Of a stretch of 64,000 nt of DNA, positions 3,001-9,000 are shown in pieces. The DNA comes from Bacteroidota bacterium. Lineage in GTDB: Bacteria > Bacteroidota > Bacteroidia > NS11-12g > UBA955. The stretch spans positions 4,823 through 68,822 of the forward strand of contig JAGFIU010000002.1 in the NCBI GenBank assembly GCA_024103355.1, written 5' to 3'. The stretch's first letter is position 1. The number at the start of each line of letters is the position of its first letter. Made by a program: the position numbers.

Positions 3001-6000
3001 TTTCCAAAGCTCCATAGCTGCGATATAAGCTCTCCAAAAAATCAACCCAAATTTACGATAGTGAAAAACAGCCATGCACTAAAGGGCTAAAAATGCTTTA
3101 TTGGATAGCTGTTTTTGGATGAGTTATGGAATAAATAGAAGTTGTGCAACGGTTACCGCTGTTAGCCGCTGCCGTTTTATCGTCTGTGTCCGCTGTAACT
3201 ATTAATTTTTACTTGTTTTCTTGTCAGACGAATTGTGTTGTCTTCAAGTCAAAATATTTTGTTGTATCTTCTATTTAATATTGGTTCTTCAAAACAATAT
3301 CCTTTTAATTCATCTGCTTTCAGGAAGTATCAGATAACCATTTAAGTACCTACGAAAATAGTCATTCTGACTACCTTCCCCACCAATATCATTATCCGTA
3401 TTGAAATTATCCTTGTTTATAACAATATTACAATACTGTGTAGCGAGCAATTTTCGACTTACTCTTTTCCTGTTGCTGACAAGCTGACTGAAAACACTAT
3501 CCATTGATTCCTTTCTAATCAATCTAACCAAGGGAAATCCTTGATTGTACATAGACAGGTACAAATCATAGTATGAAGTATGTAAAGAATCTTTAACCTT
3601 AAAATCAGCATAATAAGTATTAAATAACTTCTCAAAATTTACACAAGAGCCTTTGTCTGATTCCAACTTTGCAACAACTTGATTAAACAATGAATCTTGC
3701 GAATACATTAAAGTATCAACAGGGGTATTGCCAAAATCAAACTTACCAAAACAAAAGATAACCGCTATTAAAATAATATTTTTCATTTAATCTTAAAAAT
3801 CAAGCGAAACATCTGTTTCACACCTAATGATATTAGTGTCAATAAAACCGAAGTTGTCAGGATAGAGAAAATAAGCTGGAAAATATTTGGGAAAATTTTA
3901 TTCCAAAAATTTAACGAAAAAACAATATACCCCATTACTTCATATAAGACAGCCGCCAATTCAGTCCTGTTTGTGCGCTCCTCATACCCTATAACAAAAA
4001 AACTCATAATGAAATATGCTAAAAATAGAAGTGCGCTAATGGCAATCCAATACGATTTAAAATCCTTGAGAAGCATATGTGTCAGGTATATTATGTATTT
4101 AGATTTTGGTACTTCTATTTAGATGTACTATTTTTTCAAGCAACACAGTAATACATATATGAATAAAATACATGACATAAAAAAGAACAAGCAGTAATGA
4201 GTATATGTATTTTACTGCATAACCCAAATCATGAAGCCTAACAGATTTATAGGTCATATAACCTCTTGTAATAAGAAAAATAATTATAACCATCAAAAGA
4301 GGTAAAAACACCTTACCTCGCTTGTGATAGCAAAAGGTATACACAAAATAAGAAATAATGGAAAATATCCAACCGGAAAGAAGAGCAGAAATTTCCCTCT
4401 CATCATTTTCTTGTACAGGGTGTAATACATGGAAGTTTTTTATGAAATAGTTTAAAAGATACTTTTCATATAAGGTTTCATAAATAAATTGGATAGTAAA
4501 ATAAAAAGCCACCAAGTACAAAATAACATGTATGGAACGTTGAATTATATTGTAATTAAACGGCATGATATTTATTATTTGGATTGTTTATTTCTCTAGT
4601 ACCTAACGAAAAACTTGAATCACATTTAACGGAGCCTTGGTCATTATGCCTTCCTGCGCCAATAGAACAAAAACCATCGTCAGCTATGAGAAATTTCAAG
4701 GGTGTTTTAGTAACAATTTCAGTATGGCTACCCGAAAACGTAACTATATTTCCTCTTTTTAGATTTTTTGATTCTACTGCTTTAAATGGTCCCTTATTAT
4801 CATGTATCTGTGCTGCTGAATAGTACTTTCCATTGCTTACTGCATTCTTACCTGCCCAATACAATGCTTCGCCAACAAAAATATTGCATGTCCACACACC
4901 TCCATATTCATTACCCCAGAATATAGCATATAAATTTTGTGGCCATCTCTTAAAGCCTTCAATAAGTTTATCAAGAGTAGTTTGATTTTCCGGCAAAGTA
5001 TTAGGGTTAAGCCCTGCCAAATCACATATTACTTGTTTTTGTTGAGTATCTAATGTTTTCCATCCCTTCCATGTTTTTAGGGAAGAAACATTTGAATACT
5101 TGCCAACTAAATTAGGATTTTTAGAAAAAAACCATTTAAAATCACCATTCTGAAATTTTTGATAACTTTGCATAATAAGTGAATTGCCTCCAAGTGTTTC
5201 AGCAGCTTTAGCAATGTCATCAGGTGTTACCATACTATTATTTGGGATTGTAGAACTTTCAAATAACCTATCCGTATTTGTTATGCTGTCCCATTGTTCT
5301 TTCCAAAATTCTATACTGCTCATAACATTACATTTTAGGTTTCGGGATTAGTTGGATTGTCTGTTGAGCCACAATTGCATCCGTATCCTCCGCTTTGCGG
5401 CACATCGCAGCAGTCGCCAAACACTTTTTTGTACATGGCTGCCTTTTCAACAGGGTCGGTTATGGCTTCAATAATATCCATGCTCTGCTGCTTAATATCA
5501 TTGTCAAGCTTGGCATTCAAAATAATATTGTCTTGCGCTTTCAGGTTAAAGCAATCCAAGGCTTCGCCCTGTCCTAAAATGGAATCTACAATAACGCTGT
5601 CTGTTGGTAGCACACGGTGTGTTACATTCTTTATAATGCCTCTTACACTAATTGGGGCTGCACCTCCATACGGCACGTAGTTGCTTACAAGATTCGGGGC
5701 TTTTCTAAAGCGGGTAGTAGTCATTATTGGTGGATTAGCAGGTGGCCAATTACTGCTTGGAGTATGATTAAAAAAGTCCCAAATATTTTCGGTATATTTT
5801 TCAAGGAAGCTCTTTGGGTTGGTGGCATCCTCATAATCATATACGTTACCCAATTGGTTTACAATTTCTTGGAATGTTACCAATGCATCGGCTGGATTGG
5901 TCATTACCTCTTCCAACATTTGCAATAAACCATCTATTTTGGTTACAATTTTCTTTTCTTCGTATCCATTAGAAAAAACAAAGGTTACATCGTCAAGATA

Positions 6001-9000
6001 GGTGATGGTTATTAACTCTTGATTAAGCTGACGGAAAACAAAGTTTAATGTCCTGCTTTTGTTCAGATTTTCTAGTACCCTCGTTACGGTGCTTTCTTCA
6101 CTTTCTGTACTTGTGGTGCTGGTTTCGGTGTTTACTTCTACCTTTCTATTGCTTACAGATTTTTGCGTTTGTTTGCTCAAAGCTCTGTTGAGGGTTTTGA
6201 TGCTTTCTTCTCTTTCGCTATTGGTTGTTTTACTGTAACTAGCGGAAGCACTTACAGAAATTTTTGGCAAGGGCAAACTCAATCCACCACTAACTTTTTT
6301 GGCAACATTGGTGCTACTTTTTGTATGGGTATTACTTTCCTGTTCTGCAATGGTTTCTAAATCACTTGCACTTTCATCACTAAAGCTGTCTAGCACATTT
6401 TGAACATCTCTTTTGTTAGTTACTGTCTGCTTATAAGTTTTGATAGAAATAGTAGTTTTTTCACCAGGTAACAAGGAGAAAGTTTTAACCGTTTCTCCTG
6501 CTCCGTATCTACCTAAATAGGTGTTTACTCTGTAATGTTCTACTATGGTAATTTCAGGTTTTACAGTGGCAGGTTTTGGTCTGAATTGGATTACATTGTG
6601 TCCTGCCAAGTTGGTTGTAATAACGGGCATTGCATTTTTAGATAGCTCAGCTACCTGATCAACAGGCATTCCTGCCACTTTTATATCAAGCACTGGACCG
6701 GTTGGCACTTCGGCAAGTGTTAAGGTAGCTGCATCAGCAATATTTACCAATGGGCTTACAGAAAGCTGGCTTACTTCAGTACCCATACTGGCAGGTGCAG
6801 TGGCTACAACGCCTGCAAAGCTGTTGGCAATATTGGCTGTAAGTTGTACTGTGTCAATTGTCTGAACTTTGTCGTAATAGCTTTCGCCACTTGGTGGGTG
6901 ATTCGTATAATTAGGCTTAAATTTTCCAGCATCAACAGGTACAGGCAGGTACACATTGGCAACAAAACTTGTGGTTTGGGGAAGGTTGTAATTCAAAATG
7001 GGCAGATTTTCACCGTTACCAAGCTTAATCATAGGCTTAGGGTCGAGGCAGGATGAATTTTCTGGCATAATTATTTGTTTTAAAATTGTTTAACGGTATT
7101 TTATTGTTCAATATTTGATTTCTTGTGTCATTTTTTTGGGTTTAGGTTCTAAGGTTCTGACTAACGTCCGTCATATTTGCAAAGCTTACTTAATAAAATT
7201 ACTAAACTTCCCATTCACAATGTGCCAAAAATAATGCAAAAGCTTTGAAAACAAATACTTTGTTTTTCTTTTATACACCTGAAAACATTCTCAAACCTTT
7301 ATCCGTAGCCGGTTGTTGTAATTTTGTGCAACGGGTTGCAGCTACTCGAAGGTTGCGATTTAGAAGCACTTCACTGTCAACCAAGCAGAAATTTGGGTAG
7401 TAACACAAAGCTTGATTTAACCACTGAACCGCCACTTTTGGGTAGGTGCTGTTATAGGGCGTTTTTCTTGTTAATTGTTCATTTGTCAATGTCGTTTTGT
7501 TGTCAAATTTTATTCTACTTACCAAGTCCGTATTTGTCAACCGCTGGTTGTCCCCATATATTGTCTTTAACTCTGTAGATTGTTTCACAGTCTGTTAATT
7601 GTCCGCATATAGGGTCAGGTTGTCCCCAAGCGAAATTACAAGTACCAATTTGTTTCCCGTCTTTGTCGTAAACTGCACCTCCTGCGTCATAAGCATTCTG
7701 TCCTGCACTGTAAACTGTCTGCCCGTTGTGTTTACATTCACTAATTTCTCCGTTTTTGTAGGTCTTGTAAAGTTTCTTTAAAGTCTTTTTGTTTTCAAAG
7801 TCGTTTTTCTTACAACTCGAAATCCCTATTGACAATATCATTGTTATTGTCAAAATGGTTAAAAGTTTAATTTCCTTTTTCATATTGTCTGTCGTTTTTA
7901 AATGCCCTATAACTTCCGTCCTATTTACGAAGGTTGCATAATAAAATTACTAAACTTCCCATTTACAACGTCCCAAAAATAATGCAAAACCATTACAGTT
8001 AAAAAACAGAACTGCAACTTTTGCAAATATGACAGTTAGTAATCCGACTTTCTCCTATCGTAATTTAATATTATTACAGATTCTTTAAAAAGTTCTCTTC
8101 TGATATAATTTCAAGCGTTGATCCTTTTTCTATAAGTTTTACTGCCTTTTCTTGTTTACTGCTCATTCCGTCATCGCCAACAACCCTATAATCTTGTTGT
8201 CCAACAATTAAAAAGTCTGTGTCTTTTGTAACACTATTCCCAATTATTCCACCAATATCAGCAATAGTTTGTTGGGCCTCTGCACGAACCATTGAAGATA
8301 ACGCACCAGTAAAAACAACTGTCCTACCGTAAAAAATACTGTCAGGATTATGTTTTGTTGGGTCTCCAACAATTTTTGTCAGATCTTTTGCTTTATAAAT
8401 CCTTTTTGTTTCGGATGGTCTGTAACCACCGTCATAAAGTTGTCCAATTGTTGTTTTGAGTTTTTCAGAAAAGTCGTCAATTGATGAAACACCTGCTATT
8501 CCAAACGCCTTTAAAGTTAGTTCAGCAGTTGCTCTACTGTCAGTACCTGCTCTGTGATGTTTTAGATCAATACTATTTACTTTACAAAGCGTTTTTAAGT
8601 CGTAAGAAGGAAGTCCTTGCCAAACCTTTTTAGAAAAAATATAACTACAAGAATAGTTTAAGGTCGGAAATGGTAATTGATATGTTTCAAGTGTCCTACG
8701 TAAAACACTAATGTCAAATCCTGCATTATGAGCAATTAAAAACTTGTTTTCAATAAGAGGTTTTATTTCAGTCCATAATTCGTTGAACTCTGGTTTGTCC
8801 GCTACGTGTTCGGGTCTAATTCCGTGAATTAAAATATTAAAATAGTCAAATTCATCATACTTTGGTTTGATTAACCAAGATCTAGTATCAACTATTTGTC
8901 CGCCCTCAACAAATGTCAATCCAATTTCACAAGGACTGTCTCGCTGTGCAGTTGCCGTTTCAAAATCTATTGTAATAAAGTCCATTTTTTATTGTCATTA

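Follow-up and report, generated by a model that had tools for sequence, protein, structure and literature searches.

The 64-kb window studied here (contig JAGFIU010000002.1 of a Bacteroidota bacterium; all coordinates are those of this whole stretch) contains a compact group of five genes, labelled A to E in 5′ to 3′ order and all encoded on the minus strand, which an earlier note on this DNA had singled out as a candidate system for toxin delivery and immunity. Gene A (5335–7068) encodes a protein of 577 amino acids (aa), which heads the module as its conserved component and is a putative carrier or translocator. It is followed by gene B (4556–5323; 255 aa), a putative effector, by gene C (4099–4566; 155 aa, approximately four transmembrane (TM) segments), the putative immunity protein and cognate partner of B, and by genes D (3783–4076; 97 aa, two to three TM segments) and E (3310–3786; 158 aa, with a signal peptide), both of which appear to be orphan immunity-type genes. 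The five co-oriented genes and their spacing as given in the earlier note are borne out exactly by the listing of open reading frames (ORFs), with an 11-bp gap between A and B, an 11-bp overlap between B and C, a 22-bp gap between C and D and a 4-bp overlap between D and E. Taken alone, this spacing would imply that A to E are co-transcribed; three metatranscriptomes from a study containing the locus yielded a single contig of 207 nucleotides (nt), inside A, which is too little to judge the operon. Predictions of TM segments and N-termini also agree with the description of two proteins without a signal peptide followed by three membrane or exported ones: A and B have no hydrophobic segment at their N-terminus and E begins with the signal-peptide-like MKNIILIAVIFCF. 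For the five proteins, nothing above chance level was obtained from Pfam, NCBIfam, PADLOC, PHROGs or the PDB sequences (all matches to PADLOC models had E-values of 0.014 or higher).

Protein A belongs to a large family. More than 780 relatives, every one of them labelled hypothetical, were obtained with a word-indexed search, and an exhaustive phmmer search resulted in 1221 representative clusters at 50% identity, 501 of them with E-values below 1e-30. Relatives occur in 226 GTDB species genomes, mostly of Bacteroidota, but also in Kiloniella and other Alphaproteobacteria, in Acidobacteriota and in a few other groups. Some genomes hold three copies (L011, L013 and L018 derive from one metagenome-assembled genome; labels of this type denote individual A-family loci that were compared with the window). 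The proteins are 550–780 aa long and share six conserved cysteines, an N-terminal motif (S-S-C...EPFIKL...YNLPQ), core motifs (YLGxYGAGxTVKTFSLLPGEKT, NKSRxLNFVFRQL and GQGEALDC) and a conserved C-terminus (FGDCCDVPQSG-C-x-C). Residues ~45–165 are variable and contain immunoglobulin (Ig)-like insertions in one homolog, and residues ~213–324 form a Ser/Thr/Gly-rich insertion of approximately 110 residues with low model confidence. The AlphaFold2 (AF2) model of A (predicted local distance difference test (pLDDT) 70, predicted template modelling score (pTM) 0.63) is beta-rich and elongated, with long beta-strands (172–199, 341–366 and 478–498) flanking the insertion. When compared with BFVD, this model matched no phage structural fold; its sole significant structural neighbour (E = 7e-9) was A0A5K0U6Q4, an uncharacterised 642-aa protein of the giant virus Yasminevirus, a similarity that could stem from an A-family gene having been transferred horizontally. 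An origin of A from a phage or prophage was rejected, given that a tblastn search of 50,697 phage records gave no match and that IMG/VR contained no relative. Fusions of A with toxins were also sought; in the longer homologs the extensions are Ig-like or DUF1508-like and not toxins.

The gene neighbourhoods of A were compared in 85 loci (80 of species genomes, five of metagenomic origin), in which the co-directional ORFs behind A were chained. In this comparison A is the stable component, and effector-immunity cassettes are swapped on its downstream side and, in some cases, upstream. The first genes behind A fall into 37 BLAST clusters among 66 and the second genes into 49 among 54. Judged from its Pfam domain, the first gene, where recognisable, usually seems to encode a cell-wall hydrolase (the domains found are Tae4 in eight cases, Glucosaminidase in two, Amidase_3, Peptidase_M15_3 and DUF6402). 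Across the compared loci the first gene is swappable and often wall-lytic, in support of the wall-lytic enzyme that the earlier note had placed beside A. The product of the second gene nearly always starts with a signal peptide or lipobox. In 45 of the 54 second genes the encoded N-terminus is hydrophobic, as opposed to 1 of the 66 first genes and 1 of the 85 A proteins. The combination of a variable enzyme with variable small exported or membrane genes, which the earlier note had named as the pattern to look for around homologs of the 577-aa protein, was indeed found. Within −5/+6 kb of A in the 85 loci, no family beyond effector, immunity or regulator types recurs, nor does any of the known secretion genes (Hcp, VgrG, PAAR, Tss-like), and these families are not seen in the Pfam-annotated A neighbourhoods either. 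The module may operate stand-alone, as the earlier note inferred. Plasmid pAK76 of S. meliloti (L089; NZ_CP066360.1, 54489–58361) carries a distant homolog of A (658 aa, 24% identity). The gene behind this homolog is annotated by NCBI as a polymorphic toxin and matches Ntox44 (7e-18), which suggests that some members of the A family deliver toxins acting in the cytoplasm. This plasmid is conjugative, and behind its Ntox44 toxin gene lies one for a protein of 276 aa that lacks a signal peptide.

The effectors are separate proteins, each composed of a short, disordered, Trp-rich tag and a variable enzyme domain, and behind each lies the gene of a variable exported or membrane protein of its own. 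The effectors behind A are otherwise unrelated and can be aligned only across their first ~25–45 residues. By eye, the tag takes the forms F-x-N-P-W with a second Trp, often accompanied by GG, (F/Y)-W-(K/R)-x-x-W, and NIWG..(V/I)LDS. Window protein B, which starts with MSSIEFWKEQW, has the FWxxxW form, and its tag, MSSIEFWKEQWDSITNTDRLFES, spans residues ~1–25 (nt ~5249–5323, minus strand). A regular expression for the tag matched 51 of the 66 first genes behind A versus 23 of 741 other ORFs of the same loci, and approximately 12 of these 23 control ORFs are further tagged effectors located upstream of A. At least one tagged ORF is present within 4 kb of A in 54 of 79 loci, and two or three in 16; the whole window contains one A copy and one tagged effector only. 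Effectors of one locus can carry nearly identical tags (three in L035, and pairs in L021, L029, L041 and L076), and the catalytic domain of B sits behind four different tag types across genomes.

The AF2 model of B (pLDDT 87, pTM 0.84) has a compact, enzyme-like domain that is predicted with confidence and a disordered tag, of which residues 1–23 are of low confidence. Homologs of B that are 40–63% identical occur in L015, L033, L021, L025 and L052, in each case next to an A gene, and Cys146, His200, Cys219, Arg225 and Cys234 are invariant among them. Cys146 (TCNIFVGE) begins helix 145–156 and His200 (HTEIVT) begins strand 200–209, an arrangement that, in the model, is compatible with a papain-like core. 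Of the Cys-His amidase that the earlier note saw in B, the invariant Cys146 and His200 stand; the enzyme assignment is unproven, since B matched nothing in Pfam or NCBIfam or among PDB sequences and profiles, and its model had no neighbour in the PDB by Foldseek (best E ~1). A comparison of the B family with Tae4-type effectors by hhalign gave a probability of 21%. Gene C is homologous to the gene directly behind the B homolog in L015 (41%) and L033 (36%), so that B and C form a conserved pair. The partner being a four-TM membrane protein hints at a target of B at or near the inner membrane; such a partner is not particularly suggestive of peptidoglycan.

Genes D and E have their relatives behind other effectors. 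D shares 58% identity with a membrane protein of 103 aa in L019 (7468–7779), which is encoded behind a tagged effector of 271 aa whose nucleophile-elbow motif is GYSWGG, and it also resembles L022_2 and L029_6, both located behind the same GxSxG effector type. These effectors (L019, 6672–7487; L022, 9802–10596; L029, 12652–13452) share GGVDY and GYSWGG, have no above-threshold Pfam match and are probably esterases or lipases; they are always followed by a protein of ~100 aa with three TM segments that is related to D. E is 34–44% identical to an exported protein directly behind a Tae4-type effector in L004, L021, L033, L035 and L042. Thus, homologs of C, D and E each follow one effector type only. 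Family and tag scans revealed neither a Tae4 gene nor a GxSxG lipase-like effector in the window, which makes D and E orphans: they are putative spare immunity genes against the lipase-like and Tae4-like effectors of other strains. Locus L033 has the same set of genes as the window (E-like, B-like, C-like and D-like) in a different order, and its D copy (56%) is likewise an orphan. D has a sub-threshold match with Phage_holin_5_2 (E = 0.049), which was not credited, and E has no match with Tai4 or any other Pfam family. The order of one carrier, one toxin and three immunity genes in the earlier note is, consequently, well supported and can be refined, with C as the cognate of B and with D and E as orphans; its reading of the small genes as immunity genes fits their products, which across the compared loci are partner-specific and exported or membrane-bound.

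Exchange of cassettes is apparent from close relatives. The A genes of L009, L010 and L011 are 85–88% identical to that of the window, and the DNA homology comprises A and ~100 nt upstream of it and ends 55 nt before the A stop codon; the genes downstream of A in these loci are unrelated to B, and the genomic flanks differ. In L076 (11075–11314) a 79-aa relic, in which the N-terminal motif of A (…ESCQPQEPF) is joined to the C-terminal one (GECCGCPQ), precedes a second tagged effector; it looks like what is left of a duplicated module after an internal deletion.

The modular architecture, the specificity of the partners and their export, the orphan immunity genes and the exchange of cassettes are hallmarks of polymorphic effector-immunity systems. 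We consider it reasonably probable that the locus is such a module, serving bacterial antagonism and headed by the uncharacterised 577-aa protein A. A and B, made without signal peptides, would exit the producer together, and B would act on the envelopes of neighbouring cells, the immunity proteins being stationed in the periplasm or the inner membrane. The tag would act as an address label by which any effector is coupled to A, and A would be the carrier or translocator that brings the effector across the outer membrane of the target, with its variable region (~45–165) picking the target and its beta-rich core and Ser/Thr/Gly-rich insertion interacting with the membrane. The six conserved cysteines, the hypervariable N-proximal region, the beta-rich elongated model and the lack of an immunity-like gene tied to A itself in the compared loci all argue for an extracellular carrier and not a killer.

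However, several observations weigh against this interpretation. A and B have no recognisable export signal. The top Foldseek matches of the A model in the PDB (Cry35, Cry78, Tpp80, monalysin and aerolysin) are all beta-pore-forming toxins, and these matches are weak (E 0.03–0.3, probability ≤ 0.2, template modelling score < 0.2). The insertion of the window protein contains an alternating LSLPLPKISVSASASYS stretch, and that of many homologs is Gly-rich and not cleanly amphipathic. The idea in the earlier note that A is related to beta-pore-forming toxins has, therefore, not been established: the weak Foldseek neighbours speak for it, whereas a sequence-family match was not obtained, with no Pfam match for A at E ≤ 1, only noise in a Pfam scan of 46 A homologs, no match of the A profile in the PDB and no membership of the Aerolysin, ETX_MTX2 or Toxin_10 families. 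We regard this model-based resemblance as a lead, not a finding. Furthermore, the tag variant does not closely follow A, since the A proteins of the window and L009 are 88% identical while the tags of their effectors differ. Hence, the near-identity of tags within a locus may reflect recombination history instead of binding specificity. The sequence differences between the window A and its 85–88% identical relatives are scattered, so that no tag-binding region can be named. In the Alphaproteobacteria and Acidobacteriota, the partner of A is a single conserved tagged protein of 350–430 aa (350–390 aa for the NPW-headed protein upstream of A) and not a variable cassette. Its N-terminus is Pro-rich or of the NPW type, and it contains no Pfam domain. 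It is located directly upstream of A, in reversed gene order, in L053–L055, L061, L062, L066, L068, L078 and L080 and downstream of A in L056 and L086. Finally, ORF calling in the related loci was mechanical and some of the genes called as ‘B’ (e.g., in L040, L049 and L059) are unrelated.

A more far-reaching proposal, which we regard as doubtful, is that the A family represents self-sufficient toxin delivery that needs no secretion system, i.e., a bacterial ‘AB toxin’ directed against bacteria. Released A would then bind the target by its hypervariable region, assemble in the outer membrane and thread any enzyme bearing the ~25-aa tag into the periplasm. If true, one conserved translocator would serve an open-ended, swappable arsenal across the Bacteroidota and several other phyla. 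The likeness to the binary AB toxins (anthrax protective antigen with lethal and edema factors; C2/iota type) is a functional analogy only, consisting of a conserved component, interchangeable enzymes and a common N-terminal docking element. Unlike in these toxins, A has no match with PA14, Binary_toxB, Aerolysin, ETX_MTX2 or Toxin_10, the docking element is ~25 aa long and not a folded domain, the proposed targets are bacterial and neither component has a signal peptide. With the aerolysin/Toxin_10-type pore-formers A has in common that it is beta-rich and elongated; its only fold neighbours in the PDB are beta-pore-formers, at a similarity far below significance.

Among the competing explanations, the one that survives best, though we think it unlikely, is that A serves as an accessory to some known secretion machine whose genes lie elsewhere, such as an adaptor of a subtype-iii type VI secretion system (T6SS), a chaperone or a spike-associated carrier. 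The loci would then be orphan auxiliary effector modules and the tag a loading signal for that machine. Auxiliary T6SS modules are often scattered through the genome, with adaptors encoded directly upstream of effectors. Tae4 is, moreover, a classical T6SS effector family, Ntox44 is listed among both T6SS and type VII secretion system toxins, and effectors without a signal combined with periplasmic immunity match the logic of the T6SS. The A-family loci resemble the Tae4/Tai4 pairs of the T6SS in their signal-less Tae4-family effectors with exported partners, and the acquired immunity arrays of Bacteroidales in that orphan immunity genes, like D and E, are kept without effectors. They differ from the former in that window E does not match Tai4, that the effectors carry an NPW/FW tag and that no T6SS gene lies next to the 85 loci. 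The non-recurrence of Hcp, VgrG, PAAR and Tss-like families near A argues against an accessory, as does the lack on A and B of T6SS marker domains (MIX, FIX, RIX, PAAR, prePAAR and the adaptor domains DUF4123, DUF1795 and DUF2169). With its 550–780 aa, hypervariable region and six cysteines, A is also unlike the small cytoplasmic adaptors, and its model matches neither VgrG nor Hcp structures.

It is distinctly improbable that A itself is the toxin, a bacteriocin-like pore-former, and that the tagged enzymes are co-released helpers and not translocated cargo. The best, albeit weak, fold neighbours of A are all beta-pore-formers, and its variable N-terminal region resembles a receptor domain, with Ig-like insertions in some homologs, both of which would fit such a role. 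Nevertheless, no conserved immunity gene accompanies A, whereas each effector has its own partner, the variability is concentrated in B and C and not in the core of A, and the conserved tag of B argues for a physical coupling of B to A. Even less credible is an action of the module inside its producer, in phage defence, abortive infection or addiction. In such a scheme, A would permeabilise the inner membrane, B would destroy the cell’s own wall and C, D and E would be the brakes. A and B do lack signal peptides, a pore-like protein with wall hydrolases recalls holin-endolysin logic, and AbiEii or HipA genes adjoin some of the loci. No PADLOC match was obtained, however, and the partners, each of which goes with a single effector type, are lipoproteins or constitutively exported proteins; orphan D and E make sense against neighbours but not for self-control, and arrays of two or three effectors per A are what one typically sees in antagonism loci. 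A lysis or type-10-like release cassette, with B as endolysin, C and D as holins and E as a spanin-like protein releasing A, is the least plausible of all, since the below-cut-off Phage_holin_5_2 match of D and the small multi-TM proteins C and D behind an enzyme-like gene are outweighed by the separate pairing elsewhere of D homologs with lipase-like and E homologs with Tae4 effectors, by the composition of most loci (A, an effector and one exported protein, no holin-like gene), by the lack of a PHROG match and by the failure to find A in phage collections.

Upstream of gene A an 85-nt repeat (7162–7246, minus strand) lies in its leader; this is presumably the repeat T1-A by which the earlier note had bounded the operon. 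A second full copy (7910–7994) is located upstream of the gene for a 122-aa DUF6970-like lipoprotein (7515–7883), and partial copies occur at 48288–48320 and 50104–50152. The two full copies are 86% identical and intergenic, and each contains on the minus strand a TATTTTTG (at 7233 in the copy leading A) that resembles the Bacteroidota −7 element TAnnTTTG, which makes the repeat a possible promoter or regulatory module. Gene A and the 122-aa lipoprotein gene may share regulation through these copies. Scans for sigma-70 promoters and terminators remained at chance level. LuxR/GerE-type response regulators adjoin A upstream in five other loci (L001, L006, L064, L069 and L077), in L006 together with a HisKA_3 kinase, and no such response regulator is present near the window module. 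The module may, in some lineages, be under two-component control.

On its other side, the module adjoins a C-terminal fragment, 74 aa long, of a transposase of the IS1182/IS5 type (2804–3028, plus strand; DDE_Tnp_1_6, E = 0.002; transpos_IS1182, E = 1e-4). The G+C content is 0.28–0.31 across C and D and 0.34–0.43 in the flanks. The transposase fragment and the low G+C content of C and D suggest that the module arrived horizontally. The flanking genes are of the housekeeping type and encode a TPR protein, a PolB-like exonuclease, a histidine phosphatase, a DnaQ-BRCT exonuclease and Mrp/NifU. The earlier note had also stated that the window contains no gene of a T6SS, RHS, contact-dependent inhibition (CDI) or extracellular contractile injection system (eCIS); the statement holds for its ten largest ORFs, in which no such domain was found and three of which lack any Pfam match, and thus for that part of the window only. 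These three ORFs are located at 58950–62525, 32814–35252 and 48507–49946. Elsewhere in the window (17791–23445), an 1884-aa PKD-repeat protein carries a C-terminal sorting domain for type IX secretion, from which it follows that the organism has a type IX secretion system. The locus was found in at least 20 metagenome runs of activated sludge from seven studies and is, therefore, not an assembly artefact.

Polymorphic toxin systems (Rhs, CdiA-CT/CdiI, MafB and the effector-immunity islands of the T6SS; PMC3482391) have in common with the locus a constant part combined with hypervariable toxins, cognate immunity genes downstream, arrays, orphan immunity genes and exchange at a conserved junction, as well as toxin domains (Tae4, Ntox44 and amidases). 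In contrast to these systems, the constant part is here a separate 577-aa protein with a ~25-aa tag and is not fused to the toxin, A is not similar to Rhs, CdiA, MafB, VgrG, PAAR, LXG or TANFOR, and known secretion genes are not linked to the locus. A short, disordered terminal peptide that marks unrelated cargo for a carrier encoded nearby is also known from the loading signals of Photorhabdus virulence cassettes and other eCISs and from the cargo-loading peptides of encapsulins; here, unlike there, no gene for a sheath, tube, baseplate or HK97-fold shell is present and the model of A matches none of these. Full-text searches and the survey of Zhang et al. (2012; PMC3482391) yielded no paper on the A family or the tag. 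The logic of polymorphic effector-immunity systems is thus known; what would be new is a separate, previously undescribed carrier with a short tag that replaces the fused trafficking domain.

If our interpretation is correct, the presence of an NPW/FW tag on a gene next to A would be a genomic handle for new antibacterial enzymes and immunity proteins, many of these proteins, among them B of the window, having no known fold. The necessity and sufficiency of the tag for coupling to A would become directly testable, and a portable pair of tag and carrier would be of interest as a tool for protein delivery. For the bacteria themselves, a family that occurs in hundreds of species, mainly Bacteroidota from the environment, sludge and the gut, would then mark an undescribed route by which they are armed against neighbours.

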